Of a stretch of DNA of 64,000 nucleotides, positions 2,127 through 55,056 are shown one piece after another (position 1 is the first letter of the stretch; every line of letters begins with the position of its first letter). The notes beneath the pieces were generated by a model, which worked only from the letters and a program-made list of their open reading frames with translations, searched no databases and was not told the DNA's origin. Source of the DNA: Acidobacteriota bacterium (GTDB lineage Bacteria; Acidobacteriota; UBA6911; JACQSX01); contig DASXQR010000010.1 of assembly GCA_036507075.1 (NCBI GenBank), positions 26,485 through 90,484 on the forward strand, in the 5' to 3' direction. The position numbers and the translations under genes were made by a program.

Positions 2127-2170
2127 AATTATGACCCCATTATAAGCACTCGACCATGATCGCCCAAGCA

Positions 2171-2230
2171 GGCTAACGATTCTGGGTTTGAGCCGCGCGT
2201 TCTTTACGTCGGTTCCAAACCCGTGTTAAC
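2171..2230 (-). repeat. attC-like site, short class (~60 bp): GCTAACGATTCTGGGTTTGAGCCGCGCGTTCTTTACGTCGGTTCCAAACCCGTGTTAAC
   Basis: RYYYAAC / GTTRRRY-type ends (GCTAAC ... GTTAAC) with an internal inverted repeat GGGTTTG...CAAACCC. It sits between two cassettes. Confidence 0.45.
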
Positions 2231-2265
2231 CCGTCCAAGTCCACATTTCTGACCAGTACTGCATC

Positions 2266-2619: not shown

Positions 2620-2717
2620 ATAGGGTTTTCTGTTCGAATTTCGGAGAAATCGAGCAGATTACATTGATTTCACAATCCCGAATTGTGACAGGCATCTATC
2701 ATCCTATCCCATGGACC

Positions 2718-3763
2718 TCATCTCCGCGTCGCTGCCACCACGTCCCGAATCGCAGTAACCACGATGTCAGGCTGCGAGATCAGAATCTCATGGCCGCTGT
2801 GCCGGGCGATGACCTGCTTGCCGGCGCTCGATAGAGCCACCAACGCCGCCTGGTTTCTCTTGTGCTCATCTTCACTCACGCGGCCCTCCGGACCTTCATT
2901 TTCGGGAATCCCTCGCGACAGCACGATAAGCGGCATGTCGCCCAAGGGATGTTCCTTCTTGCCTTGCTGGGCGAGCATGGCCGCCAGCTCTTCACCTTCG
3001 AACGGGTTGTCATTGGTTGCCCAGTGCTTGATTTGCGAGAACGCCCATGCGCGCATGCGCTGGGCTTCGGCTGGAAGCTTGTTGCGTGGCGTGTCGTTCG
3101 CGTGCGGAGCCATCTGCCGGACAGCCGCTTCAATCTGACTTCGGATGTTCCCGGTAAGGTCGCTTTCGCGCAGTGGATCCGAGGTCTTGACCGCCGGGAT
3201 GGGTCTTCCAGTTGCGGTCTCCACCAAGCGGACCATGCGGCTATCTCTGAAGACCGCCACACCACTTTCATGGCCACTCTCCTCGAGTACCATGCCACCG
3301 ACCTCCGATGGATATGTGAAAGCGTAGAGGCGAGCCAATATGCCACCGTACGAGTGCCCCACAAGCACATAAGGAGGCCGAACGCCAGTCTTCTCGAGGA
3401 CGGCATGCACTCCCACACGACCTGGCGCAACGTTCGTGGGCGTGGACCCAGGTCGCTCCAACCGAGCCCGGCGCGATCGTACGAACACACGCGCGCGAAG
3501 CGGGCGACTTCTGGCTGGACGAGACTCCAATCCACCGAGAAACCACCGGCCCCGGCTTCGAGGATGACAGTCGGCTGTGACGCGCTGACCTGGCCCGTGC
3601 AATTGAGGTGGACTCGCCACCCGCCGAGATCTACTAGCTGGCCGGGCGCAGAAATGGGTGGCGAACTGGGTGGTGTCTGGGCTGTCGCCGGCATCGAAAC
3701 CCAGATGAGCAGAACGGCTGATATCGGCACCAGCAATCGACACCAAGCGAGCGTTTGTTGCAT
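2718..3763 (-). pseudogene. Secreted alpha/beta hydrolase, frameshifted
   Basis: The signal peptide and N-terminus (MQQTLAWCRLLVPISAVLLIWVSMPATAQ..GWRVHLNCTG..VILEAGAGGFSVDWS..) are in the frame of ORF 2876..3763. The catalytic part (..PYVLVGHSYGGILARLYA..) is in the frame of ORF 2718..3746. The shift is near 3430. Confidence 0.65.
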
Positions 3764-31309: not shown

Positions 31310-32125
31310 TCAGCTTCTTGGTTGCGGCCAAGCCGTGTGGCTCTGCAGTGAATTTTTCGCGCGTTGTGCCGCTCGCGGCTCTGTGAGTGCCGGCGATGAA
31401 AGTGCGGCGAATTCTCTCATCGCTTTCCATGCCTCGCGGCGAACCACCAGCGACGGGCGTGCCAGGCGCAGCCGATCTACAGCCGCTTCTACGGTCGTGG
31501 CGAAGCCATTTGCCAGCAGATAAGCGCCCAACACTGCCGCACTGCGTGAATACCCGACCTTGCAGTGCACATAGACCGTGCCTCGATTCGATTGTTCGGC
31601 AATGAAGGCCACCGCTTCCCGTAACTGGTTCTGCGTCGGACCCGTCAAGTCGAGAATCGGAATGTGTCGGCGCGTGATCTCCAGGAATGGCGACGACTCC
31701 GAAAACTCCGCGGTCAGATCCAACACAGACGTTACTCCGTGGCGGAGAGCTTCGGCGGCCTCCTTATCCGTCAGCTTGCGCCCCATCCACACTCCCGGGA
31801 TAACGACATCCCAAGGACGACATTGACGCCGGTAGTACGCGAGGGAGAGCTGCTGGCCAAAAAGATAGGGTGCGAGCAGGATTCGTCCGCTGAGCGGCAG
31901 GTACCCTTCCTTCTTCCGGAAGACTTTCGCGCCTGCTCCACAGTAGGCCACCGTCACCACAGCCAGCGAGAGAGCCGGCCAGAGAAAGATCGCCGTCCAG
32001 GGTCGCCCGAGAAAGGCCAATCCACACATTGCCAAAGTTCCGATCGCATAACAGGCTGCCACCGTGACGCTGCCAGGCAGCAGCGACAGAAACATCGACG
32101 CCCTGGCCGCTGATAAGGCCTTCAT
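31310..32125 (-). CDS. Membrane-anchored dual-specificity (PTP-family) phosphatase, PTPMT1-like, a candidate lipid-phosphate (PGP) phosphatase
   Basis: Two N-terminal TM helices. The catalytic P-loop VYVHCKVGYSRSAAVLGAYLL is HCxxGxxRS, resembling PTPMT1 HCKAGRSRSAT. Confidence 0.7.
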   Translation of the reverse strand: MKALSAARASMFLSLLPGSVTVAACYAIGTLAMCGLAFLGRPWTAIFLWPALSLAVVTVAYCGAGAKVFRKKEGYLPLSGRILLAPYLFGQQLSLAYYRRQCRPWDVVIPGVWMGRKLTDKEAAEALRHGVTSVLDLTAEFSESSPFLEITRRHIPILDLTGPTQNQLREAVAFIAEQSNRGTVYVHCKVGYSRSAAVLGAYLLANGFATTVEAAVDRLRLARPSLVVRREAWKAMREFAALSSPALTEPRAAQRAKNSLQSHTAWPQPRS

Positions 32126-33882
32126 GTCCGAATTCGCCGAGCAGCGGATACAGTGAATATTCCCCACCGATCAATTTCCTGCGAACTTTTCACGAACCCT
32201 GCGGCCCGGACCAGTTCATCCATCTCTGCCTGCGTGCGGCGACGCATTCGCCAGGGCTTCCCTTCACGATTGGTCAGGACACCCGCGATGAAGTTCAACT
32301 GCGGATGCCAGGGTTGATTGGTGTAGATAAGATGCCCTTCGGGTTCGATCGCGTCCGTGAGCCCATAAAGCGATTCGAGCACCTGCCGGTTGCCCGGAAA
32401 CAGCTCGTACAGTCCCGACACGATGCCGATCGTGGATCGAGGCACGGCAGCCGCCAGAGAGGCGCGGTCGAAGGCGTCGCCCTGAAGTGTGATTACGTTT
32501 TCCAGACCCAGTTCGCGAGCCAGCCGGCGCGCCGCGTCAAGGTTTTCCGTCTTATAATCGCACAGTACTGCCGTAATCGGAATGTGCCTGAGCTCCTGCA
32601 TGGTCTGCAAGATGTAACGCCCCGGGCCTGAAGCGACGTCGAATATGCGGACCGGCCGGCCGGCAGCGTGCGTAGCCAGGATGGCATTACGCAGCGTCTT
32701 TTGAAGATGATTGCGGCGCTGACGGATGCCTCGCCATCCGACGCTGTTCAAGTACGCGCGATCGATGGAACAGCCGAGCGGCGTCACCCCCTGCGGCCTG
32801 TTGTCATAGACGTAGTCGAGTGTCATCCCCGAGTCGAATCCCGTCCGCCATCCGAGTCGAATTCCGGCGCTCAACCGGCCGACGGTCTTCAGGGCAAAGC
32901 GCATCGCAGCGTACGAGACGCGCCTCTCGCGCCGAAGACAGTCGTACTCGGCTCTGGTGTAGCCATGTTCATCGGCATCGAGAAGCGACGCGTGTCCGTT
33001 AGGTCTCTGGAATTGTTTGAGCATGAATTCACGGAGAACCGCGATCAGGCGACGGCGATCCTTCTCGTGGAAGACCGCATGATGAAAGCCGCGAAAGATC
33101 AGCAACTGTTTGCTATGCGATGAGAGCCCTTCCAGGAACTTCTGCTGGGCCCCAAGCTTCACAATCCAGTCCGAGCCGGCGCTCACCATAAGAGTCGGCA
33201 CCGTGATCGCGCCTGCATCCGACAGCAGGCGCGTGGAAGTATCGTGCAGGTCCAGCAGGACATTGACGGCGATCTGGCGAAAGATAAATTCGTCGTCCTG
33301 GTACCGCCTGGCTTCCTCCAGATCGTGCGTCAGCATTCTCGCTTTTACGTAACTCTTTACGTAACCCGGCCCCAGCAGCTTCTGCCGCAAACGTAAGAGC
33401 GTCACCGCGAAGGGGAAGTACAATTTGACGCGAAACGCCGGCGTCGCCAGGATCAGGGCGCGAATCGGCGGCGCATAGTCATGCACCCACGCGGCGACTA
33501 TCACCGCGCCGACGCTATGCGCCATCACAATCATGTCTTCCGTTGCGATTCCATACCGCTCTGAGACATGACGCACAAAATCATCCACGTCCTTGACCAG
33601 CATGGACAGGTTCACGGCCGAGCCTCTTTCACCTGATGAACGCCCGTGCCCGCGGGCATCCCAGGCGAAAACAGCCACATCGTCGAGTGCAAGCGCTTCC
33701 ACTGTCTGCTGCCAGCGGGCAGAGTGCTCGTGCCCGCGATGGAACAGCAGAAGCGCTTTCTTTGCGCGCATTGACGGAAGCCAGACACGATAAAACAATT
33801 CCCCACCATCGGGAAGCGCCAGGGTGTGCTCTGTTTGTCGGAAGGACGTTGCCCTGTTCGGGCTTGTTTCAACTTCGATCAT
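32122..33882 (-). CDS. Bifunctional alpha/beta hydrolase (lysophospholipase-like) / class I SAM-dependent methyltransferase fusion
   Basis: N-terminal ..VMAHSVGA.. GxSxG hydrolase region. C-terminal ..IFDVASGPGRY.. is methyltransferase motif I. Start trimmed to MIEVETSP. Confidence 0.7.
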   Translation of the reverse strand: MIEVETSPNRATSFRQTEHTLALPDGGELFYRVWLPSMRAKKALLLFHRGHEHSARWQQTVEALALDDVAVFAWDARGHGRSSGERGSAVNLSMLVKDVDDFVRHVSERYGIATEDMIVMAHSVGAVIVAAWVHDYAPPIRALILATPAFRVKLYFPFAVTLLRLRQKLLGPGYVKSYVKARMLTHDLEEARRYQDDEFIFRQIAVNVLLDLHDTSTRLLSDAGAITVPTLMVSAGSDWIVKLGAQQKFLEGLSSHSKQLLIFRGFHHAVFHEKDRRRLIAVLREFMLKQFQRPNGHASLLDADEHGYTRAEYDCLRRERRVSYAAMRFALKTVGRLSAGIRLGWRTGFDSGMTLDYVYDNRPQGVTPLGCSIDRAYLNSVGWRGIRQRRNHLQKTLRNAILATHAAGRPVRIFDVASGPGRYILQTMQELRHIPITAVLCDYKTENLDAARRLARELGLENVITLQGDAFDRASLAAAVPRSTIGIVSGLYELFPGNRQVLESLYGLTDAIEPEGHLIYTNQPWHPQLNFIAGVLTNREGKPWRMRRRTQAEMDELVRAAGFVKSSQEIDRWGIFTVSAARRIRT

Positions 33883-33910
33883 GACAATACTCCTCGCCTG
33901 CGACGCGCGA

Positions 33911-34639
33911 TCATTGTGAGTCGCCGGCCAGCGCGAGCACTTCATTGCGAAGTTCCGCGCAAATGTGACGTGCCGAATCGATTCCGCCCTCGCGGTCGGA
34001 GTAAGTGCGCGGCTCTCCGATTGTCAACCGGATTTGACCCGGCCTTGGAAACCATCGGTGCCTCGACCATGATTCGTAGGCGCCTGCCAGGTAACAAGGG
34101 ACTACCGGGTACCGCGTTCCTGCCAGCAGCAGCCCTACACCCGACTTGAATTCAGCGATTTCTCCCGCCGCCGATCGCGTCCCTTCAGGAAAGAAGATCA
34201 GGACGTTACCGGGGGCCGCGAGCAACTGCCGGCAAAGATTCAGGCTCTCGCAGGCGCGCGCCTGCCGGTCGAACGGCAGGGCGTTTACCGCAACCACAGC
34301 GGCGATCAGGCGCGAACTTCTAACAAAGAAGTAGTCCTGCGCAGCGGCCGGAAAAGCGTGGTGCACTCTTCTTAACTGCAGCGCCGCCAGCAGGCAGAGC
34401 GCATCAAGATGGCTCGAGTGATTGGCGACCATCACGAACGATTCGCTTTTTGGAAGTTTTCCTTGACCCGTAATCGACAGACGATGGTACGTGCGAAGCC
34501 ACAAACGCATCAGGAGTGCGGAGATCAGTCTTGCCCCATATACCAGCATGTCCGGCTCGCGCGGAAAAATTCGGAGCCGCTCAAGCGGCGTCACATCCAA
34601 ATCTCGCGCCGAATCATATTGCCATGCGCTCATAATCAA
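33911..34639 (-). CDS. plsC: 1-acyl-sn-glycerol-3-phosphate acyltransferase (lysophospholipid acyltransferase)
   Basis: ..FVMVANHSSHLDAL.. (HxxxxD) and ..IFFPEGTRS.. (FPEGTR) are canonical PlsC motifs. Confidence 0.85.
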   Translation of the reverse strand: MIMSAWQYDSARDLDVTPLERLRIFPREPDMLVYGARLISALLMRLWLRTYHRLSITGQGKLPKSESFVMVANHSSHLDALCLLAALQLRRVHHAFPAAAQDYFFVRSSRLIAAVVAVNALPFDRQARACESLNLCRQLLAAPGNVLIFFPEGTRSAAGEIAEFKSGVGLLLAGTRYPVVPCYLAGAYESWSRHRWFPRPGQIRLTIGEPRTYSDREGGIDSARHICAELRNEVLALAGDSQ

Positions 34640-34731
34640 TCTCGCTCGCTTCCGCGAATAATCGCCCGGCCAAGAGCAGTCAAAGATTTATCCACAATGA
34701 TGCGACCCATACCCACCGATCCACGACACTC

Positions 34732-35679
34732 TCAATAGAGATCATGAAAATATCGGATCATATGGAGGAACAATGGCGCCGTATAAACGAGGCTGTCCAC
34801 GCGATCCAGGATGCCTCCGTGTCCGGGAATGCAGGCGCCCATGTCTTTGATTCCCAGATCACGCTTAATCACACTCACAGCCAGGTCTCCCAACTGCCCT
34901 CCCACGCCGATGATCAAACCGGCCAGCAGGCAGTCGCGTGGTTGAAAATCAGGAAGCGTAAACCGCAGCAGCCACGGCAGGGTCATGGAGACCGCCAGCG
35001 CGGCCAGCGATCCTTCCCAGGTTTTGTTGGGACTGATGTTGCTCCTGAGCGGATGAACGCCAAAGAACTTCCCGCAGACGTACCCAGCCACGTCATTCAG
35101 CTCCACCGCGAACAGAACGAAGAGTAGATAGCTGTACGCGTGAACGGCATTCGTTAGAAAAGCCAGGTGGCCGAACATCCAGCCGAAGTAAATGAATCCC
35201 ACGATCGACAGAGCCAGCGACTGCAACTGTCCGCGCACCCGGTTCCGCGCGATGGGGATGATCAGAATTGCAGCAATCACATAAACAGGCAGCGCCATAA
35301 AGAGTCCGTACCAGCCGGGCACGTGTGCGTGGGGGTCAGAGACAAATGAAATCACGCCGGCAGCGACGATTCCGAGGTAAACGACCGCGGTCATCAACCA
35401 GTCGCGGTAAAGCCCGGTAGCGCGGGCGAACTCTTTAAAGGCGATCATCGCGACAATGGTAAAGAACAGGATGGACGTGCCCCGGCCCAATAAAATCGAG
35501 AAAACCAGCACGGGCATCATCATCAGCCAGCCGCGGTACGCCCTTAGAGCCTGGTCCACCTTTGCGCCGAATCCCCATTTCAACAGCGCAATCACTCCCC
35601 CGGCCAATACCAGAGCCTCCAACGTGATAACCAAATAAAATCTGAAGACGTCACTCTGCAGCGCTGCATGCACCGACAT
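34732..35679 (-). CDS. cdsA: Phosphatidate cytidylyltransferase (CDP-diacylglycerol synthase)
   Basis: Multi-TM protein with the C-terminal signature ..SVIKRDLGIKDMGACIPGHGGILDRVDSL... Confidence 0.88.
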   Translation of the reverse strand: MSVHAALQSDVFRFYLVITLEALVLAGGVIALLKWGFGAKVDQALRAYRGWLMMMPVLVFSILLGRGTSILFFTIVAMIAFKEFARATGLYRDWLMTAVVYLGIVAAGVISFVSDPHAHVPGWYGLFMALPVYVIAAILIIPIARNRVRGQLQSLALSIVGFIYFGWMFGHLAFLTNAVHAYSYLLFVLFAVELNDVAGYVCGKFFGVHPLRSNISPNKTWEGSLAALAVSMTLPWLLRFTLPDFQPRDCLLAGLIIGVGGQLGDLAVSVIKRDLGIKDMGACIPGHGGILDRVDSLVYTAPLFLHMIRYFHDLY

Positions 35680-35682
35680 GAC

Positions 35683-36431
35683 TCATGCCTCCCGCCACGC
35701 AGCGGACGAAGCCGGCTTTTTCGGGCTTCCAGCCAGCACACGCCTGATTCGGATCAACCTGACGCCGATGGTTTCAACACACCCGAAAATAATGGAGAGA
35801 TTCGTCCAGTCCAGGACCGACAGGCCTGCATAAATGATTTGCCCGCTTCCCCACCAGAGCAGCCCCAACGTGAGCCACCCCCCCAGATGCAGCGCAACAA
35901 TTCGCCAAGGTTTGGACATAACACCGCTGAACTCACGCTGCGCGCCCACGGCCTGGCCGAGTGTTCCGACGTAGGCAACCAGCAGCGCGAAAATTGCGGA
36001 CCAGTAACCGCCGAGCGGCCGGCAAAGACCGCTGTGCGCCACACCTGCAAAAGTGATGACGTCAGAAAGGCGATCCGGCAATTCGTTGACAATTTCGCCG
36101 GCGGGGCTCCCCGTGCCGGAGGCCAGGGCCACCATCCCGTCGAGCATATTCAGCCAAAGCCGCAAGTAGCAAAACACAACCGCCGCGATCAGCAGTGAAG
36201 GCATGGCCTGTGACTGCCAGAAGCACACTCCGGCCGCCGACGCAGCCAGGATTGAGGTGTAAGAGATCAAGTCCGGATGGATGCCGACAGCCACACAGAA
36301 ACGAACCGCGCCGCGCGCAGTGCGACGAACCAGGTCCGATATCGGCCGTCGAGAACGGGGCCGGTAAGATCCGGACTCCCAGTCCCCGGACTTCCGTGGC
36401 GGCGCGACTATCTTCACTGTTCCATAGCGCA
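35683..36431 (-). CDS. CDP-alcohol phosphatidyltransferase family protein (PgsA / PIP-synthase-like)
   Basis: Multi-TM. ..NMLDGMVALASGTGSPAGEIVNELPDRLSD.. fits D-G-x2-A-x8-G-x3-D-x3-D. The start was trimmed to MRYGTVK; the upstream 124 codons of ORF 35683..36804 have no protein-like features and overlap the neighbouring gene. Confidence 0.7.
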
Positions 36432-36646
36432 TGTTGAAACACCCCTGTCCTCCGAAGGCAAATCTGGGACCATTCGCCAACCGGCGACTGTCTTCTGGCA
36501 GCAGGCGAATCGAGACGGGCAAATGAGTTTCTAAAGCCTTGCAGCCGTGCCTATTCGAACTTTCTCTCCAACCTGAAGGGATACCGTCGGCGGGGGGACT
36601 GCTGGTTGTGACTCCCGCGGTCACAGATGTGAACTCAAATTCGGTC

Positions 36647-39600
36647 TCAACTGATGCTGCCGGTACTGAGCTCGATTGCCTGGCGCCGGACAGCAGAAAG
36701 ATCCAACTTGCCGGTTCCCAATAACGGGATGTTTTCAATGCGAAAAAATGCGTTCGGGCGGGGTATCCAAAGGTTTGGAAGGCCTGACTTGTCCAGGTTG
36801 GCAAGAAGCCGCTCCAGCACCTGGTCGGGCAAGGTATGCAGAACGACGAGCTTTTCTCCTTTGCGATCGTCTGGAACGCCCACCACAGCCAAAACCTGCT
36901 CGCCGATTCCCGTCAACTCCTGCAGCGCTTCCTCGATGCGTAAATGCGGGACCATCTCACCTCCAATCTTGCTGAAGCGCGAAAGCCGGTCTGTAACGTG
37001 AATGAAGCCATCCTCGTCAACCATGGCGATGTCACCGGTTACGTACCATCCGTCGCGAATCACCTCGGCGGTTTTATCCGGCCTGTTCAGATAACCGATC
37101 ATCACATTGCCCCCCTTGACCAGAAGCAAACCGGGCTGTCCGCTGAGAACCGGCTGCAGGGTCGCAGGATCGACAATTTGTACGCTCACGCCCGGAAGAG
37201 GTTGTCCGATGGTTCCGCTCCTGTGACCTGCCTGGTAAAAGCCGGCGCTTCGAAAATCGGGCACGTTTACCGAGACGACAGGCGAGCACTCCGTGCAGCC
37301 ATAACCCTCCATGACGTGAATACCGAATCTCTCTTCAAACGACCGGGCAACGGCGGCGCTCAACTTTTCGGCCCCCGCGATGACATATTGAAGACCCCCC
37401 AGCAACTCGGGCTCGCAGCGGCGGATCAGGCTCTGGAGCATTGTGGGCGTGGCAAGAAGCATGGTGGCGCGGCAACGCGCCGCCAGCACTCCCACAGCGC
37501 GTGAATCAAAAGGATTCGGATGGTAAATCGCAGCCATCCCGTTCAGCAGCGGAAACCATATGGTTGCGGTAAACCCGAACGAGTGGAAAAAGGGAAGAAT
37601 CCCCATGATCCGATCGTGACGGGTCGGGGCAAAGACTTGCGCCAGCCCTTCCAGATTTGAGCGGATATTGCGATGCGAAAGCATCACTCCCTTGGGCTCG
37701 CCCGTACTCCCGCTGGAGAAAATGATGGTGGCCAGAGTGTCCACACCCTTTGATTCAGCGGCGCTCAGACGGCGGGCAAGGAAACCAGCAGGCAGCAATA
37801 TGGCGGAGAGCAGAGCGAACGCGAACCGGAAGACCGTCTTCTCGCCCGCCAGGTCTTCCATCAGGAGGGAGGACGCGGGAACAGCCAGCCGCACTTTTTC
37901 AAGGAACTGACGAGAGGTGATGATCGTTCGTATTTCGCATTGGCGGACGCACGAGTCAAAGATCGGCTGAGATACGGTGTAATTGAGATTTACCGGCACC
38001 TTGCCGCACAGCAGAGCGGCGATATTGGCGACGGCGCCCGCCACGGAAGGCGGCAACAGCAACCCGATTTTTTCGTCCGCCGCAAACCGGCTCCGCAGCA
38101 GGCGCGCCAGAAAGACCGAACGCACCAGCAGCCCAAGGTAGCTCACGCGCGGGTTGAGTCCGTCGGCGACCGCCAGGCGGAAAGGATGGCGTCGTGCCTG
38201 TCGCGCAAAATCGACGTGAAGCGGTTTCAGATACTGTTGGCGAAGGCTGAATGCCTCGGCGGCAAGCCTCTGTACTTCCTGGCGTACTTCCGCCGCGCCG
38301 GAAGCTGCCCGCATGGGAGCTCCAAACGTGACAGTGACCGGATACGGAATGCGGCGGGGCCGCTTCCACAAGAACCGCCCCCGCTGAAAGCTGAAAATGC
38401 TGCCCCAGACGCCGTCCAGATGGACAGGGATAATCGGCGCATCGACACTTTTCATGATGCGCTCGAATCCTCGGCGAAACGGCAGGAGCTGGCCGGTGCG
38501 CGTGATTTGTCCTTCGGCAAAAATGCATACCACGCGGCCTTCCTGAATGGCGCGCGAAGCCTGACGCAACGATCGGATGACTTCGCGAGGGCCTCCGGTC
38601 GACGAAATCGGGATCGATTTCATCATGCGCGCAAATGGCCGAATCAATTTCTGGTCATAAAAGCCCTTGAACATCACAAAACGGATGCGCCGGTCGGTGG
38701 AGGCGAGCAGCAGCAGCGCATCCACAAATGAGAGATGGTTGCAGACAAACAGCGCGCCGCCGCGCTCCGGAATGTTGTCGCGGCCGATCACCCGGATCCT
38801 GTAAACCGTGTGGACCAGTACCCACAAACAAAACCGCAGCAGCGCTTCGGGCAAAAGCACGCAAAGATACGCGGTGACGGCAGCCGTGATGCAGCCGGTA
38901 AGGAGAAAAATCTGGGAGGGCGACCATCGCAGATGCACCGTCACGATCCAGTAAACTCCGGCCGAGACGAGCATCCCCACAAAGGTCATCAGATTGGCGG
39001 CCGCGATCATGGCGCCCTTGCTTTCAGGCTGGGGCCGATGCTGAATCAGCGCGTTGACGGGAACGGCAAAAAAACCCGCCGAGAATCCAACCGCCGCCAG
39101 CAACACGCCGGTCTGAAGGAAGGTGGTGGCGTAAAACGCCAGCGCGGTCGCGAACAGCGCCAATCCCGCGGACCCGAGCGGCACCAGGCCATATTCAATT
39201 TTGCTGTGCGAAAGATAACCGGCGACGTAGCTTCCCAGCCCGATGCCGACGGCCAGGATGGCCAGCAAATATCCGATGCGGGTTTCCGGAAGGTGAAGCT
39301 GGTCCTTTCCCAGCAGAATAATGTTCAACTGGAAAAGAAAACCCAGGAACCAGAAATAGATATTCCCCAGAATGGCCAGCCATAGGACGCGGTCCCGGCG
39401 CGCCAGCGACAAATTGCGCCAAACGTCTTTTAGAAAGTTCCATTGGAACGCGGCCTTCGGGTTAGCCGCAGGAACAGCGGTAATCGCCAGGCTGGTTATA
39501 ACTCCCGCCAAAGCTAGGATCGTGAGGGCGATTCCCGACAGGTAAAGCCTCGACCGCAGGTGTTCCACCGGGAATGCGCCTGCAACCGTGCCGAGTATGA

Positions 39601-40120
39601 TCGCCACGAAGGTGGTCAGTTCCAAAACGCCGTTGCCCCAGGAGAGCTCCTTTTCAGGAAGGAGTTCCGGGAGGATCCCGTATTTGCTGGGGCTGAAAAA
39701 GGCGGCCTGCGCTCCGGTCAGGAACAACAACGCCATGGAAAAGTACAGGTTTCCGTACCAGAAAGCGATGGTTGCAAAGATCATGATGACCACCTCGACC
39801 AGCTTGGTCCAGATGGTCACAGAGCGTTTGCTGTATCGATCGGCCAGAAATCCGCCATACATGGAGAAAAACAGAAAAGGCAGAATAAACAGCGCTCCGA
39901 TGGCGGAGACTCTTTGATTCCCCTGAATCTCGGACGAAGCGGTCAGCAGTGCCAGCAGCGTGATCACGTTCTTGTAGGCGTTATCGCTGAAAGCACCCTG
40001 AAACTGCGTCGCTATCAAAAACCAAAAGCCCCGCTTCGATTGAGCGGAAGGGATTTCAGACCGGCCCACAGAGTTAACGACCTGCTGATTTGGAGTCGGC
40101 GGAGTTGTATTGCTGTTCAT
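36647..40120 (-). CDS. Triple-domain fusion: LplT-like MFS lysophospholipid transporter, then PlsC-type acyltransferase, then Aas-type AMP-binding acyl-ACP synthetase
   Basis: N-terminal ~430 aa with 12 TM helices (MFS). Middle: ..LFVCNHLSFVDALLL.. (HxxxxD) and FAEGQITRTG. C-terminal: ..TIIFSSGSTGEPKGVMLSHRNI.. AMP-binding motif and ..GYGCTE.. / ..TGDIA...DGF..TDR.. adenylation motifs. Confidence 0.85.
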   Translation of the reverse strand: MNSNTTPPTPNQQVVNSVGRSEIPSAQSKRGFWFLIATQFQGAFSDNAYKNVITLLALLTASSEIQGNQRVSAIGALFILPFLFFSMYGGFLADRYSKRSVTIWTKLVEVVIMIFATIAFWYGNLYFSMALLFLTGAQAAFFSPSKYGILPELLPEKELSWGNGVLELTTFVAIILGTVAGAFPVEHLRSRLYLSGIALTILALAGVITSLAITAVPAANPKAAFQWNFLKDVWRNLSLARRDRVLWLAILGNIYFWFLGFLFQLNIILLGKDQLHLPETRIGYLLAILAVGIGLGSYVAGYLSHSKIEYGLVPLGSAGLALFATALAFYATTFLQTGVLLAAVGFSAGFFAVPVNALIQHRPQPESKGAMIAAANLMTFVGMLVSAGVYWIVTVHLRWSPSQIFLLTGCITAAVTAYLCVLLPEALLRFCLWVLVHTVYRIRVIGRDNIPERGGALFVCNHLSFVDALLLLASTDRRIRFVMFKGFYDQKLIRPFARMMKSIPISSTGGPREVIRSLRQASRAIQEGRVVCIFAEGQITRTGQLLPFRRGFERIMKSVDAPIIPVHLDGVWGSIFSFQRGRFLWKRPRRIPYPVTVTFGAPMRAASGAAEVRQEVQRLAAEAFSLRQQYLKPLHVDFARQARRHPFRLAVADGLNPRVSYLGLLVRSVFLARLLRSRFAADEKIGLLLPPSVAGAVANIAALLCGKVPVNLNYTVSQPIFDSCVRQCEIRTIITSRQFLEKVRLAVPASSLLMEDLAGEKTVFRFAFALLSAILLPAGFLARRLSAAESKGVDTLATIIFSSGSTGEPKGVMLSHRNIRSNLEGLAQVFAPTRHDRIMGILPFFHSFGFTATIWFPLLNGMAAIYHPNPFDSRAVGVLAARCRATMLLATPTMLQSLIRRCEPELLGGLQYVIAGAEKLSAAVARSFEERFGIHVMEGYGCTECSPVVSVNVPDFRSAGFYQAGHRSGTIGQPLPGVSVQIVDPATLQPVLSGQPGLLLVKGGNVMIGYLNRPDKTAEVIRDGWYVTGDIAMVDEDGFIHVTDRLSRFSKIGGEMVPHLRIEEALQELTGIGEQVLAVVGVPDDRKGEKLVVLHTLPDQVLERLLANLDKSGLPNLWIPRPNAFFRIENIPLLGTGKLDLSAVRRQAIELSTGSIS

Positions 40121-40227: not shown

Positions 40228-41769
40228 CTACGGTTCCGAGAACGAATAACTGACGAACGCAAAGCGCCGGCTGTCCGGTGACCACGACGCCACGTTGATC
40301 GTCCCCTGCCCGCCGAAGAGCTTTCCCAACTCCAGGGTTTTTGCGCCGGCCGGCCTGTCCATCTTGTCCCCAGGCAACGGCATGATGCGCAGCAGCACGT
40401 TTTGATTGGCGGGATGGCCCTGCGTACCTTTGCGATAAGAGAGAAAGAGCAGCCATTTGCCGTCCGGCGAGGGGTGCGGGAACCAATCGACATAGTCGTC
40501 GCTGGTAACCTGCTCGGCTTTGCTGTCGCCCTCTCCCGCGCCCTGCGCCGGGATGCGCCAGATGTCTCCGCCTCCGGCCCGGTCCGAGTTGTAGTAAATC
40601 CATTTCCCATCCGGGGAAAAATCGGGGCCGTCTTCATGGGCCGGGTTGATAGTAAGCCGCTTCGCTGTGCCGCCTTCCAACGGGATACTGAAAATGTCGT
40701 AGCTCTCATGCTGCCTGGCTACGTATGCAAGCTCTCTGCCGTCGGGAGACCATCCATGGAAGTAGCTCGGTTTGTGCTCGGTAACCTGACGTGCCTGACC
40801 GCCCGAAACGGGTAAGACAAAAATAGGACCGCTGTTCACCGACACGGCCAGCAGTTTCCCGTCCGGAGAAATCCCGTGATCGTTGTTAATCGCCCCGATC
40901 GATCCCAGGGAAATGTTTTGTGGCTCACCTCCCGCAACGGGAATGCGCCACAGTTTGCCTTCGGAGTTCACGAGCAGATACTCGCCGTCATGCGACCAAT
41001 TCGGCGCTTCAAAGCGTCTCGCGGCCGAGAAGACCACTCGCTTATCTTTCCCGTCGACGCTCATGATGGTGACATGACTGTTGAGAACAGAGGTCCCGGC
41101 CGGATTGGGCGCGAGCTTCACCTGATCCAGAGTTGAAGTGCTTAACACATCTTTCCGATGTGATGAAGCGACGAGACCGACCAAGATGCTGCGTCCCATA
41201 GTGATTGTGTCCGAACCTGTGAACTCCCAGCTCATCCCGTCCGTGGATTCGTAGCCGGTGAATTGATCTCCGCGCCGAACCAGTTTGACCCAGTAAGGCA
41301 ACCTGCCTTTGTTGATGCGGGGATTATTCGGATAGGTGATATCTCCCGGAGCGAGGCGGCGCAGAAACTGCACGCCATCGGTTGGAGTAACGACAACAGT
41401 GGCGTGCCTGGCGCCAGGGGCGAGATCCTCGCGAAACATGACGCCCGCCTTGGCGTGATCATTCGTGTTTTCCACCTGTGTGATTCGAGCAATGATCTGG
41501 CCATCGCCGGTGAAGGGCTGGTGCACGAAATGAAAACCATCGCTGTTTCCCCAGATATCCAGCGTTCCCTGCAGCGTAAATCTTTCATCTGCGCAGGAGG
41601 CGCGCCCTGCTACTTGCACACTCCCGACGTCCTGGCTGGCCCAGGGCCGGGGAAGCGAACTCTCCGGGCGGACTCGCGCTTCAGGATGGGACAGGTGCAG
41701 CGAAACAATGAATATCAGGCAACCCGCGAAGATCCACGTTGTTCGAGGAATTGTCAGTCTGATTTTCAT
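40228..41769 (-). CDS. Secreted protein: N-terminal jelly-roll (DUF1349/LamG-like) domain plus C-terminal TolB-like PD40 beta-propeller
   Basis: Signal peptide. Repeated ..SPDGK.. / ..SWSPDG.. / ..FSPDGKWIYY.. WD40-like-beta-propeller (PD40) motifs. Confidence 0.7.
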   Translation of the reverse strand: MKIRLTIPRTTWIFAGCLIFIVSLHLSHPEARVRPESSLPRPWASQDVGSVQVAGRASCADERFTLQGTLDIWGNSDGFHFVHQPFTGDGQIIARITQVENTNDHAKAGVMFREDLAPGARHATVVVTPTDGVQFLRRLAPGDITYPNNPRINKGRLPYWVKLVRRGDQFTGYESTDGMSWEFTGSDTITMGRSILVGLVASSHRKDVLSTSTLDQVKLAPNPAGTSVLNSHVTIMSVDGKDKRVVFSAARRFEAPNWSHDGEYLLVNSEGKLWRIPVAGGEPQNISLGSIGAINNDHGISPDGKLLAVSVNSGPIFVLPVSGGQARQVTEHKPSYFHGWSPDGRELAYVARQHESYDIFSIPLEGGTAKRLTINPAHEDGPDFSPDGKWIYYNSDRAGGGDIWRIPAQGAGEGDSKAEQVTSDDYVDWFPHPSPDGKWLLFLSYRKGTQGHPANQNVLLRIMPLPGDKMDRPAGAKTLELGKLFGGQGTINVASWSPDSRRFAFVSYSFSEP

Positions 41770-41774
41770 GGTTA

Positions 41775-42860
41775 TCAGGTTCTCACACCCAAGCCAAGTA
41801 TCTCTTTGCAGTACCGGATGCTCTTCTCCAGCTCTGATTTCTGGAATTCCCTTTCCGCCGACGCCCGATCCTGACCTGTGGGAATCGCAAAAGCAGTCAT
41901 CGGCCTGCCTCTTTTGGCCAAAGCAAGGAATTTCGCGAAGTCACTTGCCTTCGCTTTGGGGTAAGGCTTCCAGAATTCTGGTTTCAAATACGGAAAGCGT
42001 CTTTGAGATCCCGAAATGATTTCCAACACGAAGGCAACTCCCGGGCAAAGCTGCGCAAATCTGTCGACGTAGGCATGGAAATCCACCGAGCCTTCGCCGA
42101 TTCCTGTCCACTGAACCGCAGCTCCTTCATCGGTTTCCCACACCACAGAATTACGCAGGCCGGTGGTAACGGCATACGCGCCCAGAACCTCCAGGTTTGC
42201 CAGCGGATCCTCCAGCGTCCAGACCGCATTTCCGGAGTCCATCGTTGCGCCTACGTAATCTCGGCCTGCCTCTTCAATCAGGGTGACAAGTTCCCAGGCC
42301 TGCATATCTCCGGCATGATTTTCAACAGCGATCTTGATCCCTGCGTCGAGCGCCAGACTGCGCGCGCTCCGGCAAACCTTGACAGTGTTCTTAATGTGGG
42401 TTTCGATTCCTCCCTCTGACTTTCGGTCTTCACTGTTTCCCAGATAACAACGTGCCACGGGCGAGCCGACCACTTTGGCCACGCGAATAGTCAGCGCCAG
42501 GTGCTCTTCGGCAGTGCCGAAACGATTGCTGAACGTCCTGGAAGAAGGACAGATGCTGCCGGTGCCGGCATGAATTTCAAGACCCAGATGGTCGGCCTTC
42601 GCTTTAACCTCTTTGAGGTAATTGTCTGAATGACTTTCGTACACATCGAGGTCGGACAGAAGCAGAGTATCGACCTTTAACCCAGCAGCATAATCGAGCA
42701 ATTGCGGAGCTTTCCATCCAAAGGCGCGAATGGAGAAATTGTCGAAGCCGAGCTTGATATTTCTGCGCGAGGATTGTGCCCGACTCGAAGTAGTGACAGC
42801 CAATGATGCACCGCCAACAACCGCCTTTTTCAGGAAATCACGACGCGGTTGGGAATTCAT
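41775..42860 (-). CDS. Tat-secreted sugar phosphate isomerase/epimerase (xylose-isomerase-like TIM barrel)
   Basis: Tat-type signal ([21 protein letters not shown]). ..IAVENHAGD.. / ..EIHAGTGS.. are TIM-barrel metal-site motifs. Confidence 0.8.
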
Positions 42861-51045: not shown

Positions 51046-52839
51046 CTACTTAGGAATCATCCAGGGGAAAACGTAGGCCTGCAGCAGCACAATCAATCCC
51101 ATGATGCAGGCCAGGGCGACTGAGTGCCAGAATACAAAACGCAGGATTGCTCCCTCATGACCGCTCTGGTTGGTAGCCGCCGTGCTCACCACGATACTTT
51201 GCGCGTCCACCATCTTGCCCATTACCCCGCCGGTGCTGTTGGCGACAGTGATCAGGACCGGATCCAGAGAAAGCTGCTGGGCCGTGATCTTCTGCAGGCT
51301 TCCGAACAGAACGTTGCTGGAGGTATCCGAGCCGGTCAGCGCCACGCCCAGCCATCCGAGCAGCGCGGCAAAAAACGGGTACGCCACTCCGGTGTGAGTG
51401 AATGCCAGACCCAGCGTCGCATCCGTCCCGCTGTAGCGCGTGACATACCCGAGCGCCAGCATGCAGGCGATGGTCAGCAGCGGCCACTTCATGCGGACCA
51501 GCGTTCTTCCGGCCACGCGCGCCAGAATGCGCAGCCGGATTCTCAAATATAGGGCGGTGGCCAACGCAGCCACGAGAATTCCCGTGCCTGAGGCGCTCAG
51601 CCAATTGAAGCTGTACACGGCAGCTTCGGCGTTTTTCTGGCGATAAGGGCCGCTTCCGATTTGACCTCGATCAATCTGAACCGGAACTACGGGAAAGTCC
51701 CGGTACACCATTTTATGCAGCAGCGGCACCTGGATCTGCGGACTGAGCGCCGGGTTCGGCGGACTTGGTTTTCCGGTGGCGCGATAAGCGCGCAAACTGG
51801 CCGGACCGCCATTCAGAAAGGCCTTCACCGGAGGCAGGCCCCAGCAGAAGACGAAAACGCTCAGAAACACCCAGGGCATCCACGCTTTTACAACCTGCCC
51901 CCGCGAATAGGTTGCCGTCTCAGAGGATCGGCTCGCCGGCATCGCCCGGGCCGGAACCGGGACATTCGGCGCCGCTGCATTTGCGTCCGGCATCTTATTA
52001 AGATTCTCCGGAAATTCCCAATTGTCTTTTGGCTTCCACCAGGCTGCAAATCCCGCCGTGATAAAGAGACTCACCAGCCCCCCCAGGATGTCCACCAGCT
52101 CCGGACCAACGTAATTACTCCAGAAAAACTGAACCACAGCGAAGCTTCCACCGCTGACAAGCACCACCGGCCAGACGCCCTTGAAGCCTTTCCAACCGCT
52201 CATGGTCACGACCAGCCAGATCGTCACCAGCAAAGAAACAAACGGCAACTGCCGGCCTGCCATCTGTCCCAGAATGAAGGGGTCCTGCTGGGTCACGGCG
52301 GCCAGCGTGAGAATTGGAGTTCCGAGGGCGCCAAACGCCACGGGCGCCGTGTTGGCGATCAGGCAAAGACCGGCGGCATAGAGCGGCGGGAATCCCAGGC
52401 CCATCAACAGCGCCGCGCAAATGGCAACAGGTGTTCCAAAGCCGGCGGCGCCTTCGATAAACGCGCCAAAGCTGTAGCCGATCAGCAGCGCCTGCACGCG
52501 GCGATCCGCCGACAGCGATGCCACCGAATGCTTGATGATTTCAAACTGGCCGGTTTCCACCGTCAGGTTGTACAGGAAGACGGCCGTGATAATGATCCAG
52601 CCGATCGGAACCAGGCCAAATGCCGCTCCATAACCGGCCGAGGCCAAAGCCGTGGCAGCAGGCATTCGATAGAACACAATCGCGATCAGCAATGCAGCAG
52701 CCAGGCCACTCATCGCCGCCCACTGCGCCGGCACTTCAAAAGCAGCGAGCAGGACGAGCAAAACCACGATTGGCAGCGCCGCCAGCAGCGTGGAAATTAC
52801 AGCGTTACCTGCCGGATTATAAATCTGGATCCATTCCAT
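51046..52839 (-). CDS. lctP: L-lactate/glycolate permease (LctP family)
   Basis: MEWIQIYNPAGNAVISTLLAALPIVVLL.. / ..GYSFGAFIEGAAGFGTPVAICAALLMGLGF.. are hallmark LctP motifs. ~14 TM helices. Confidence 0.92.
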   Translation of the reverse strand: MEWIQIYNPAGNAVISTLLAALPIVVLLVLLAAFEVPAQWAAMSGLAAALLIAIVFYRMPAATALASAGYGAAFGLVPIGWIIITAVFLYNLTVETGQFEIIKHSVASLSADRRVQALLIGYSFGAFIEGAAGFGTPVAICAALLMGLGFPPLYAAGLCLIANTAPVAFGALGTPILTLAAVTQQDPFILGQMAGRQLPFVSLLVTIWLVVTMSGWKGFKGVWPVVLVSGGSFAVVQFFWSNYVGPELVDILGGLVSLFITAGFAAWWKPKDNWEFPENLNKMPDANAAAPNVPVPARAMPASRSSETATYSRGQVVKAWMPWVFLSVFVFCWGLPPVKAFLNGGPASLRAYRATGKPSPPNPALSPQIQVPLLHKMVYRDFPVVPVQIDRGQIGSGPYRQKNAEAAVYSFNWLSASGTGILVAALATALYLRIRLRILARVAGRTLVRMKWPLLTIACMLALGYVTRYSGTDATLGLAFTHTGVAYPFFAALLGWLGVALTGSDTSSNVLFGSLQKITAQQLSLDPVLITVANSTGGVMGKMVDAQSIVVSTAATNQSGHEGAILRFVFWHSVALACIMGLIVLLQAYVFPWMIPK

Positions 52840-53049
52840 CGTATTCGAAGGGGAACGAAGCCGGACTATACCAGTGGAATTTCGAATTCAAAATTGAAAA
52901 ATTATCAAAGTTAAAGTTTCGTACTTTGGTGGTCAAAGAATTTGAAACCGGCTGAGAGCGATAGGGTAGGGAGAGCCGCTAGGCTCCCCCACCCCTTCGA
53001 ACCGGACGAGCGGATTTCCCGCATCCGACTCTCCAGTTGATAGGTCACC

Positions 53050-54186
53050 TCATAGAGGATTGACAGGCTGCGTGATGGGCTGCTTCCAGCGAAAGCAGTC
53101 CTTCAGCAGCAAAGAAAGCGTTGGTCCAGCGTTGATGATCCTGCCAGCCGCGTGAAACTCCTTTCCTGCCACTCCAAGCCCATTACGGCCCCTTCCTAGC
53201 TCGTTCGGAAGTGTAAACATTCTGACTCCCCCGCCTATTAGTGGGTCATTAGGATTCAAAAAAGTTCCGCTTGCCACTGTTTCTGGGGGTGACCAATGAA
53301 CTCCGTGATCCAGGGATGTGGCCATTCTAATGGAATTGGTAGTGAAATCAGTCCACAAAAGATAGACATCACCGGTTGTTGAATTTACGACAATATCAGG
53401 GCCTTGAACCCAGCCAGTCGTTGCGGTATATGAGCCGAGAAAGCTGTTTCCACCATCTAAACTAACTGCCACGAACAGTGTGTTTTGGTTTGCATCCAGG
53501 TTATCAACTCGGTTCCACGTGACATAAACATACCCGAGACTCCCTGGATCCCAAGAGACAGCGCAGAACGGCTTGTCTAAAACGTAGCGGTTGCTTCCAT
53601 TGGATACGATAACAGAAGCCGAAAGCCATGAAACTCCTCCGTCATCCGATCGCCAAAGCACGATCGCGTTAGGTGGGTCGTGAGCCGGACCATTACTGAC
53701 AAGCCCAGAGCAATACATCCGAAGTGGCGCTATGCCTGTTGTGTATGGATTGATATCCAGCCAAGGATCCGCTGACACCCAGTAGAATGGAGGCATTTGA
53801 AGCTGACCGCGGCTGAAATTCAGAAAGTCGGTCGTAGTCGAGTACCACACGGTCGGGATACCTTGCGCGTCATACTTAATGTGGCTCACGGTTGTGAAGT
53901 CAATTGAATTACGTCTCAAAGAGCAAATCGATGGTTCGACATCTTGAAGACTGTCCGATGTAGCGTTAATCGTATAGAGTGACGACGTTGACGGAGTCGT
54001 TGGGCCCCGAGGTTGTACTGATGTCGGTGGAAATTGTGGCGACCGTCCCAAGGCTCTAAGAGTGATGAAGTAAAGTGTCCCGCTGAGGGTATTCAGGCTC
54101 TTCTCGCTTATTTGAAAAGCCTGGCCATGGATACCTAGAATTAGTATGATTATTGACAATAAAATAAGAATAGGAAGTCTTTTCAT
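53050..54186 (-). CDS. Secreted BNR/Asp-box repeat protein (sialidase/glycosyl-hydrolase-like beta-propeller), low-GC island
   Basis: Signal peptide. Asp-box-like motifs SDDGGVSW, SLDGGNSF and SLDHGVHW (S-x-D-x-G-x-T/S-W/F). GC ~45%. Confidence 0.6.
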   Translation of the reverse strand: MKRLPILILLSIIILILGIHGQAFQISEKSLNTLSGTLYFITLRALGRSPQFPPTSVQPRGPTTPSTSSLYTINATSDSLQDVEPSICSLRRNSIDFTTVSHIKYDAQGIPTVWYSTTTDFLNFSRGQLQMPPFYWVSADPWLDINPYTTGIAPLRMYCSGLVSNGPAHDPPNAIVLWRSDDGGVSWLSASVIVSNGSNRYVLDKPFCAVSWDPGSLGYVYVTWNRVDNLDANQNTLFVAVSLDGGNSFLGSYTATTGWVQGPDIVVNSTTGDVYLLWTDFTTNSIRMATSLDHGVHWSPPETVASGTFLNPNDPLIGGGVRMFTLPNELGRGRNGLGVAGKEFHAAGRIINAGPTLSLLLKDCFRWKQPITQPVNPL

Positions 54187-54225: not shown

Positions 54226-55056
54226 TTACTGGCTAATTAAACCAGAATTGGCCTCCTGAAAATGTTCTCCAGCACTGCTGGTCGAAACGTCAACCGCGGT
54301 AACTCCGATATCGCGGTTGGCACGTATTTCGAGCGTCCCTCCAAAGAACAATGTCACTTGGGGGAATAAGTCAGTTAGAGTCTTAAGCGTGTTGCCACCC
54401 GCCGGAATGGATACCGCTGCTTGACCTACCTGATTACCAGATCCGTCTCGAAGAACCAAAATTACGTCTGCCTGACCGTCAGAGCCCAGGGGAAGCGCAA
54501 GCCCAATGCCCAGACTCTCGAAGATATTTGGGTCAGCTTGCTGGCCGAGAGGCACGAATCTAGCATCCATAAAAAACCGCTTGCCTAGACTGCCTGGCCG
54601 TAAGAGCAATCGAGCACTTACGATAATAGAGGGAGGATTAAAAAGAGTATCGGAGCTATGAGTGATTTCTTCTTGGACAATGACTGGCACATTCGAGGTT
54701 ACGAGCATGCACCCCGCAATGATAGAGTCTCGAAAGTCAAAGTCTATGTTGCGCCTAAATGAGAACGGAGCAATCTGGAAGGTCGTTACGAACACAGGAA
54801 GTGGTTTGATTTCCTTCCCTAACGGATCAAGAATCATAAAAGAAATCGTCGCCGTCGATGAGTTTGGGTTAACTACATTAAAATACGAGTGATAGGCATC
54901 ATAAACAGAGAAAGCGGGATTGCTTGGATTCCGCGCTATTGAGACACGTACATAAAGTGGAAAGAAGGCTGTGGTGGCTGCCCCTGATTGAGCCATCATC
55001 AGACTAGGGCAAAGGCTTAGGATTCCGAGTAGGCAAAATACTGGCTTCATGGTCAA
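54226..55056 (-). CDS. Hypothetical secreted protein (low-GC island)
   Basis: Signal peptide (MTMKPVFCLLGILSLCPSLMMAQS). Protein-like composition, no recognisable motifs. Confidence 0.45.
   Translation of the reverse strand: MTMKPVFCLLGILSLCPSLMMAQSGAATTAFFPLYVRVSIARNPSNPAFSVYDAYHSYFNVVNPNSSTATISFMILDPLGKEIKPLPVFVTTFQIAPFSFRRNIDFDFRDSIIAGCMLVTSNVPVIVQEEITHSSDTLFNPPSIIVSARLLLRPGSLGKRFFMDARFVPLGQQADPNIFESLGIGLALPLGSDGQADVILVLRDGSGNQVGQAAVSIPAGGNTLKTLTDLFPQVTLFFGGTLEIRANRDIGVTAVDVSTSSAGEHFQEANSGLISQ

Follow-up and report, generated by a model that had tools for sequence, protein, structure and literature searches.

The window analysed here is a stretch of 64,000 nucleotides (nt) of DNA from an Acidobacteriota bacterium (GenBank assembly GCA_036507075.1, contig DASXQR010000010.1, positions 26,485 to 90,484 of the forward strand). 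Five consecutive minus-strand genes at positions 31310-36432 of the window form what comparison of their products identifies as a cassette homologous to the ynbABCD operon of Escherichia coli, with a lysophospholipid acyltransferase gene added. On balance, the cassette is probably a horizontally spread accessory lipid operon in which a branch from cytidine diphosphate-diacylglycerol (CDP-DAG) leads to a phosphorylated lipid that is then trimmed by a dual-specificity phosphatase (DSP). The cluster core is a copy of a widespread ynbABCD-type operon, and its membrane phosphatase is therefore of a type already known, if uncharacterised, and lacks here one usual domain; NCBI already has a name for the type, 'phosphatase PAP2/dual specificity phosphatase family protein'.

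The proteins of the window were compared directly with those of E. coli K-12 b1408-b1411 (ynbABCD). The fused hydrolase-methyltransferase is 47% identical to YnbC over 576 amino acids (aa) (2e-179), and the CdsA paralogue aligns with YnbB over 286 aa at 32% identity (111 bits), as against 98 bits over the C-terminal 186 aa with E. coli CdsA. A profile of the cassette transferase scores 52.9 bits on E. coli YnbA and -1.6 bits on E. coli PgsA. YnbD matches the window DSP at 33% identity (1e-26) and P0002, a 449-aa relative of that phosphatase, at 33% over 414 aa (3e-62). The Pfam architectures match those of ynbABCD, and the genes follow the order A-B-(acyltransferase)-C-D. Experimental knowledge of the E. 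coli operon centres on YnbB, which synthesizes CDP-DAG in vitro and whose overproduction raises the level of the glycolipid MPIase; the enzyme is non-essential and cold-induced, and cannot replace CdsA for bulk phospholipid (PMC6362211, PMC7018664, PMC11413397). The ynbA promoter is activated by BglJ-RcsB (PMC3950696). A literature search found nothing on YnbA, YnbC or YnbD.

The gene set recurs far beyond chance, the same genes being found together in dozens of unrelated genomes. A scan of one genome per species gave 214 relatives, from which 80 loci were kept and searched by tblastn with the window proteins; gene counts use the 59 loci in which the sequence upstream of the DSP match extends for 5.3 kb or more. 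Upstream of the DSP, a PAP2 domain is present in 57 of these 59 loci, the transferase in 48, and the CdsA paralogue and the acyltransferase in 44 each; the hydrolase-methyltransferase lies directly upstream in 53/59, and all five genes stand in the window order in 41/59. The phosphatase is thus kept next to lipid genes in relatives, and the absence of such neighbours, which the earlier note had named among the outcomes that would refute its idea, is not what is seen. The loci come from Planctomycetota, Verrucomicrobiota, Binatia, Rokubacteria/Methylomirabilota, Elusimicrobia, Nitrospirota, Limnocylindria, Acidobacteriota, Alcaligenaceae and Pseudomonadales. Across at least 10 bacterial lineages the cassette proteins are about 50-70% identical to those of the window, which argues for horizontal spread, and in Burkholderia, Rhizobium, Shinella and Sinorhizobium plasmids or secondary replicons carry the gene set in shuffled order. 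In Pseudomonas protegens the gene set has been listed as a 'membrane phospholipid remodelling module' (PMC13541209).

All-against-all clustering of open reading frames (ORFs) in the flanks of the 80 loci, with the window's own flanking ORFs partly annotated, revealed no universally linked extra gene, and no conserved inositol-phosphate synthase or glycosyltransferase was among them. Neighbours are lineage-specific only (an ABC transporter, a CorA-like protein, a sigma-54 regulator and a small membrane protein). The gene for the last of these, a membrane protein of about 145 aa with two to three transmembrane helices, directly follows the PAP2-DSP gene in 34/80 loci, mostly of Verrucomicrobiota (for example L017, 10730-11167), and is absent from the window (tblastn, E ~1 at best) and from E. 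coli. Small hypothetical genes hold the same position in Burkholderia and Rhizobium cassettes (L087, 9200-9652; L088, 9094-9534), and their products have no detectable homology to the verrucomicrobial protein. One locus (L090, 1139-4680) has a Sulfotransfer_3 gene between the genes for the hydrolase-methyltransferase and a PAP2-less DSP, followed by FAD oxidoreductase and methyltransferase genes, a variant cassette that hints at head-group tailoring chemistry.

The minus-strand lipid cluster of the window is confirmed as genuine, and comprises six closely spaced genes (31310-40069; Table 1) on which the ORF listing, Pfam, NCBIfam and gene calls made independently on two Logan contigs with identical genes are concordant. 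From the gene encoding a fusion of a major facilitator superfamily (MFS)/LplT transporter, an acyltransferase and an AMP ligase (Aas) down to the hydrolase-methyltransferase gene, the intergenic gaps are 22, 3, 98 and 28 nt, and the hydrolase-methyltransferase stop overlaps the DSP start as ATGA (4 nt). Scans of the cluster for promoters, terminators and Rfam families returned no regulatory element. The earlier note had counted seven genes; its interval holds six, and the seventh minus-strand gene, beyond it, encodes a PD40/TolB-like propeller without a lipid link. Its domain calls and the HCKVGYSRS P-loop were all borne out, with some refinement of individual names: its 'plsC' is an acyltransferase that reaches only 48 bits against the cutoff of 103 of the PlsC model TIGR00530 and scores higher with Aas-type models, and the domain of its CDP-alcohol phosphatidyltransferase is correctly named at a score of 20-21 bits, as against a Pfam gathering threshold of 22, and falls under every NCBIfam cutoff.

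Table 1. Genes and sequence features of the lipid cluster and its upstream flank (window positions)
Feature	Position	Strand	Remarks
DSP phosphatase	31310-32125	-	271 aa; DSPc 57.6 bits
P-loop HCKVGYSRS of DSP	31541-31567	-	Cys202 nucleophile and Arg208
General-acid loop PILDLTGPT of DSP	31634-31660	-	Asp173
YYRRQCRPWD segment of DSP	31808-31837		conserved
Deletion junction of DSP	32069-32092	-	protein ...FLSL/LPGS... (slash marks the junction); in-frame loss of PAP2_3
Hydrolase_4 and Methyltransf_20 fusion, YnbC-type	32122-33882	-	204 and 390 bits (Pfam)
Methyltransferase motif I FDVASGPGRY	32614-32643		
Hydrolase nucleophile elbow AHSVGA	33505-33522		
Lysophospholipid acyltransferase, PlsC/Aas-type	33911-34633	-	PF01553 73 bits
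Acyltransferase HX4D motif NHSSHLD	34403-34423		
CdsA-type cytidylyltransferase, YnbB-type paralogue	34732-35679	-	CTP_transf_1 188 bits
CDP-diacylglycerol synthase signature	34795-34875		canonical, intact
CDP-alcohol phosphatidyltransferase-like, YnbA-type	35683-36432	-	ORF open further upstream
KPWR motif of transferase	35902-35916	-	
Non-canonical motif NMLDGMVAL-x8-GEIVNELPDRLSD	36061-36150	-	alignment to Mycobacterium tuberculosis phosphatidylinositol phosphate synthase
MFS/LplT-acyltransferase-AMP-ligase (Aas) fusion	36647-40069	-	NF006386 1378.3 bits
PD40/TolB-like propeller	40228-41769	-	no lipid link
AP_endonuc_2-type gene	41775-42860		xylose-isomerase-like TIM barrel

The transferase of the cassette is atypical. 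Relative to the canonical motif D1xxD2GxxAR-x8-G-x3-D3-x3-D4 of CDP-alcohol phosphatidyltransferases, the window protein has Asn at D1, Leu at the motif Arg and Asn at D3, and the same non-canonical pattern is present in 50/50 cassette homologues. The wider family counts 744 members at E<=1e-10, and of the 150 representatives taken for it from a library with clustering at 50% identity, 96 span the motif; Asp is found at D1 or D3 in 0/96, with Asn at D1 in 95/96 and any of Asn, Gln, Ser and Thr at D3. Across about 145 relatives in total, these two of the four canonical positions are uncharged without exception. E. coli YnbA likewise carries both Asn residues (NALDGMLAR...GAILNETGDVISD). No description of this replacement of two Asp residues in the YnbA family was found in the literature searched, and the motif is a diagnostic handle for finding the function of the cassette. 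An Arg directly after the fourth Asp is also conserved across the YnbA family, E. coli YnbA having Val there. The conserved core opens at MRYGTV (start at 36432), with alternative starts upstream at 36624 and 36804; since conservation begins near MRYGTV, the true start is probably 36432, which places it about 215 nt after the Aas stop and leaves room where an internal promoter could sit. The extension of the ORF at 36433-36804 (-), of about 60-125 codons, is of low complexity and has no counterpart in homologues.

Comparison with MtPgsA1, the M. tuberculosis phosphatidylinositol phosphate (PIP) synthase, gives some indication of the acceptor. In that enzyme D68 and D89 ligate two Mg ions, and R94 and R155 bind inositol phosphate through its phosphate group (PMC6506517). 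The YnbA family keeps Arg at the counterparts of R94 and R155, within its PDR and KPWR motifs; at the other pocket positions Lys stands for R152 and Ala for S132, R195 falls beyond the aligned region, and the second sulfate site (K135, R137) is not kept. The nearest NCBIfam models are AIPS, for archaetidylinositol phosphate (AIP) synthase, at 64.8 bits (cutoff 180), PIPS at 32.2 (170) and the BT1523 type at 26.7 (350), and no PgsA model of NCBIfam matches at E<0.01. This kinship with AIPS and PIPS, together with the kept arginines of the phosphate pocket, makes a subsequent dephosphorylation step plausible. The alignments suggest an acceptor that is itself phosphorylated and a metal site that is altered, and the chemistry may differ from classical CDP-alcohol transfer.

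The phosphatase of the window consists of two transmembrane helices, the YYRRQCRPWD segment and the DSP domain, and starts at the ATG that overlaps the upstream stop, the ORF itself reaching 32167. Among the best 120 homologues, most are about 445 aa long and carry an N-terminal PAP2_3/PAP2 domain ahead of a two-helix transmembrane linker and the DSP domain. The earlier note had identified the phosphatase correctly and overlooked that it is a truncated form of this two-domain PAP2_3-DSP protein. When the window DSP is aligned with P0002 (75-77% identical), the first ~15 residues match, ~180-190 are skipped, and the alignment resumes at the linker; an alignment of the window DNA to the contig of P0002 (L084) is collinear on either side of a gap of about 0.5-0.6 kb. 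The short form is identical in three independent assemblies, namely two from Logan and an NCBI Acidobacteriota metagenome-assembled genome with a protein 100% identical to the window DSP, and because it recurs in them the in-frame deletion of PAP2_3 can be taken as real. The lost domain was not found elsewhere in the window, where tblastn gave no PAP2 match better than E ~1. Residues C202, R208 and D173 are invariant in the family alignment, and all three are kept in the window DSP despite the deletion.

In the relatives the PAP2_3 domain, which we take to be the Pfam family of AUR1/inositol phosphorylceramide (IPC) synthase, shows PSLH and QHHxxD motifs, the domain of P0002 scoring 26.8 bits against a Pfam threshold of 27. 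The DSP of L090 is a genuine PAP2-less form, with the sulfotransferase gene at the corresponding position. A second apparent natural loss, in P0033, was rejected as a frameshift in a long-read contig, the PAP2 part being in an adjacent ORF. The transmembrane and DSP portion of the window protein also matches the first 230 positions of PRK12361 (NCBIfam NF009025), presumably a 546-aa proteobacterial type in CDD that joins the same transmembrane-DSP module to a diacylglycerol-kinase-like catalytic domain, which would further tie the module to enzymes of lipid metabolism.

The earlier note had described the phosphatase as resembling PTPMT1, the mitochondrial phosphatidylglycerol phosphate (PGP) phosphatase. 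When a DSP family profile built from 40 sequences was run against the sequences of solved structures, PTPMT1 was indeed the top match at 60.4 bits, its lead over a bacterial DSP (57.9) and DUSP19 (54.8) being marginal. The profile alignment spans the P-loop and the following helices, including YVHCKxGxSRSAxxVxAYL, and the P-loop and acid loop of the window protein align with HCKAGRSRS and VDMTGVPT of PTPMT1. In a single-sequence search a bacterial DSP scores above PTPMT1, which reaches about 32 bits, level with DUSP23 and DUSP12. A Foldseek search with the AlphaFold model of a full-length relative (mean predicted confidence, pLDDT, 86) placed many small DSPs near-equal at a template-modelling score of about 0.8, with PTPMT1 in 8th place; the matches to this PAP2-DSP model were generic DSPs only, with no PAP2 structure among them. 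The label 'PTPMT1-like' is therefore reasonable as a description of the active site rather than as a statement of orthology. The noteworthiness that the earlier note attached to a bacterial lipid phosphatase of the protein tyrosine phosphatase (PTP) family is weakened by the ynbABCD homology, by the existing NCBI type name and by the demonstration in 2013 of a PTPMT1-like bacterial PGP phosphatase in Rhodopirellula baltica (PMC3576122).

The remaining cassette enzymes are of recognizable types. The hydrolase half of the fusion is an alpha/beta hydrolase of the MGL/lysophospholipase-like kind, resembling monoacylglycerol lipases and lysophospholipases, and the Methyltransf_20 half is a class I S-adenosylmethionine-dependent methyltransferase whose model (pLDDT 91) is nearest to an uncharacterised protein and then to small-molecule methyltransferases; a literature search on Methyltransf_20 (PF12147) found nothing. 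The acyltransferase has its best NCBIfam match in the acyltransferase part of Aas-type proteins, and an acyltransferase 46-60% identical to it lies between the CdsA and hydrolase-methyltransferase genes in the 44/59 loci counted above and is missing from E. coli ynbABCD. Immediately upstream of the cassette, the LplT-acyltransferase-Aas fusion matches NF006386 over residues 47-1170 (cutoff 1221) and NF008397, for its LplT part, at 149.7 bits over residues 48-439. This gene is a lysophospholipid recycling module, adjoining and probably co-transcribed with the cassette. The earlier note had made it a member of the cluster; the locus comparison places it outside the conserved unit, as a lineage-specific neighbour, since a comparable gene lies near the cassette in one other locus only (L027, 6 kb downstream, 31% identical). 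In the closest relative (L084, about 85% nucleotide identity), an AP_endonuc_2 gene (1980-3062) directly follows the phosphatase gene, and in the window a gene of this type is found past the PD40 gene, at the other end of the cluster, indicating local rearrangement around the cassette.

These features can be assembled into a pathway. The YnbB-type CdsA paralogue would supply a dedicated pool of CDP-DAG, from which the YnbA-type transferase would move the phosphatidyl group onto a phosphorylated acceptor. The membrane-tethered DSP would then act at the cytoplasmic face to strip a phosphate from the lipid intermediate, in the way that PTPMT1 acts on PGP, and the hydrolase-methyltransferase and the acyltransferase would tailor the head group, swap acyl chains, or both. 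In most genomes the AUR1-like PAP2_3 domain would work on the outer leaflet, a step given up with the deletion in the lineage of the window. The neighbouring LplT-PlsC-Aas fusion would serve as an ordinary module for re-import and re-acylation of lysophospholipids. With its invariant Cys, Arg and Asp, with PTPMT1 as its top profile match and with fusion partners that include transmembrane helices, PAP2_3 (in the majority of relatives) and, presumably, the diacylglycerol-kinase-like domain of the PRK12361 type, the DSP appears to be catalytically competent and directed at lipids. The proposal of a PTP-fold lipid-phosphate phosphatase acting downstream of CDP-DAG is thus plausible and supported by context; the part of it that does not carry over is the product, which is unlikely to be bulk phosphatidylglycerol (PG) or phosphatidylinositol (PI).

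Several observations weigh against this pathway. Without two of the four canonical Asp residues and the motif Arg, classical transfer from CDP-DAG to an alcohol may not occur. The DSP is only marginally nearer to PTPMT1 than to protein-directed DSPs, and the P-loop of YnbD, HCALGLSRS, lacks the Lys found in the window's HCKVGYSRS. The sole characterised enzyme of the cassette is E. coli YnbB, and phospholipids are unaffected when ynbB is knocked out in E. coli (PMC6362211). Across genomes the tightest pair is YnbC-YnbD rather than transferase and phosphatase, several loci holding just those two genes, and this could mean that the function is not centred on a CDP-DAG product. Loss of PAP2_3 could also signal decay of the cassette in the lineage of the window, in which the remaining four cassette genes keep their full length and their motifs.

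The unusual transferase motif also allows a more specific and more tentative reading, namely that YnbA-type enzymes perform a non-canonical phosphatidyl transfer and that the cassette makes an undescribed class of lipid, widespread in soil phyla. The transfer may be onto a phosphate monoester, to give a head group linked through diacylglycerol pyrophosphate, for example an MPIase anchor, or it may be onto an undescribed phosphorylated alcohol that is later methylated. If this is true, a new lipid is spread through soil Verrucomicrobiota, Planctomycetota, Acidobacteriota and Proteobacteria, and the window carries a natural variant without the outer-leaflet PAP2 step.

An MPIase-like pyrophosphate glycolipid is a possible product. 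A doubtful extension of this idea has YnbB and YnbA together joining CDP-DAG and a sugar-1-phosphate into a sugar-pyrophosphate-diacylglycerol resembling the MPIase anchor, the phosphatase domains processing or recycling the pyrophosphate lipid. PAP2 enzymes often hydrolyse lipid pyrophosphates, which accords with this scheme, and a phosphate nucleophile, needing no general base, would fit the less acidic active site of the transferase. MPIase rises on overproduction of YnbB, and membranes form GlcNAc-PP-DAG from CDP-DAG and GlcNAc-1-P (PMC6362211, PMC11413397); the published step is, however, assigned to CdsA and YnbB themselves, and MPIase is normal in the ynbB knockout. No conserved glycosyltransferase or sugar-nucleotide gene accompanies the cassette in the 80 loci, the MPIase glycan is an enterobacterial common antigen repeat not expected in the phyla that carry the cassette, and the methyltransferase is left unexplained.

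It is unlikely that the cluster is the organism's pathway to PG (and cardiolipin), with CdsA, a PGP synthase of the PgsA type and, in place of PgpA/B/C, a PTPMT1-like PGP phosphatase. The adjacency of the CdsA and CDP-alcohol transferase genes, the place of PTPMT1 at the head of the solved matches with a near-identical P-loop context, and the PTPMT1-like PGP phosphatase of R. baltica (PMC3576122) all fit such a pathway, which the earlier note had proposed as a complete head-group route. The weak point of that proposal is the transferase, which is not PgsA-like (-1.6 bits on PgsA as against 52.9 on YnbA, and no PgsA model at E<0.01) and has the non-canonical catalytic motif throughout its family. 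The cassette is moreover accessory and patchy, and plasmid-borne in several Proteobacteria; YnbB is unable to sustain bulk phospholipid synthesis (PMC7018664). In E. coli the genome that carries the ynb operon also has a pgsA gene. E. coli also has pgp genes, which are still essential there. Bulk PG synthesis by the cassette is accordingly unlikely.

PI synthesis is likewise unlikely as the general function of the cassette, and we regard as improbable an inositol-lipid route in which the transferase is a divergent PIP or AIP synthase, the DSP a PIP phosphatase and the usual PAP2_3 domain an AUR1-like phosphoinositol transferase. This scheme would account for AIPS, PIPS and the BT1523 type being the best NCBIfam matches of the transferase, for the kept counterparts of R94 and R155 in the inositol-phosphate pocket, and for the fused PAP2_3 domain with its PSLH and QHHxxD motifs. 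The scores are nevertheless far under the family cutoffs, the PIPS-pocket residues S132, K135 and R137 have not been kept, and no conserved inositol-phosphate synthase gene was found in the flanks of the 80 loci, the window's own flanking ORFs being annotated in part. E. coli, itself a carrier of the operon, is not known to have inositol-phosphate synthase or inositol lipids. Finally, the idea that the DSP acts on proteins or in regulation, or that its truncated gene has no function, and that it simply travels with lipid genes would suit its near-equal distance from DUSP23, DUSP19 and DUSP12 by fold and sequence and the deletion of its PAP2_3 half, and is very improbable in view of its constant membrane anchoring, its translational coupling to the hydrolase-methyltransferase, its fusion to lipid domains in relatives, and the survival of all its catalytic residues beside four full-length genes with intact motifs.

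The accessory lipid operon with a phosphorylated intermediate and a trimming DSP is therefore the interpretation carried forward here. The cluster of the window is an ordinary instance of the cassette plus a standard LplT-Aas module, and its interest lies in what the cassette represents. The ynbABCD genes are a conserved 'y-gene' operon of E. coli, and the same set, usually with the acyltransferase, is kept across phyla and on plasmids at high identity, which argues for a specific, transferable lipid function. The transferase motif, the membrane DSP with intact catalytic residues, and the PAP2-less or sulfotransferase-bearing variants offer handles on that function.

Elsewhere in the window, at 52961-53033 (-), there is a match to the whole of the group II intron model RF00029 (domain V/VI) at 42.5 bits, against a gathering threshold of 40. 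Its neighbours are a lactate permease gene (51046-52839) on one side and two ORFs without Pfam matches (53050-54186 and 54226-55056) on the other, and it adjoins a stretch of low G+C content at 54-56 kb; no ORF for a reverse transcriptase or maturase was seen with it.

Among known systems, E. coli ynbABCD is the nearest, with the same four types of protein in the same order at identities of 29-47%. The window differs in the lysophospholipid acyltransferase gene added between B and C, in a YnbD homologue without PAP2_3, and in a transferase with a hydrophobic residue at the motif Arg and with Arg where YnbA has Val. PTPMT1 and the R. baltica enzyme share with the window DSP a small membrane-associated DSP fold and the P-loop HCKxGxSRS, and would share the proposed role of dephosphorylating a phosphatidyl-X-phosphate derived from CDP-DAG; identity is about 26%, the window protein has two transmembrane helices at its N-terminus, normally joined by PAP2_3, and its gene sits inside a ynb-type cassette rather than being partnered with PgsA. 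For the transferase, the closest characterised family is that of M. tuberculosis PgsA1 and Bacteroides BT_1523/BT_1525, the alignment spanning the catalytic motif and transmembrane helices 4-5. The PIP and AIP systems work on the same principle, in which an intermediate is made in phosphorylated form and a phosphatase then acts on it; their known PIP phosphatases are PgpA-like, and the phosphatase of the cassette is a DSP. The AUR1/IPC-synthase-type PAP2_3 domain is carried by relatives of the window phosphatase and not by the window protein. The LplT-Aas gene is ordinary in comparison with E. coli LplT-Aas and the three-domain fusions of NF006386, and its place immediately upstream of such a ynb-type cassette is a feature of this lineage alone.

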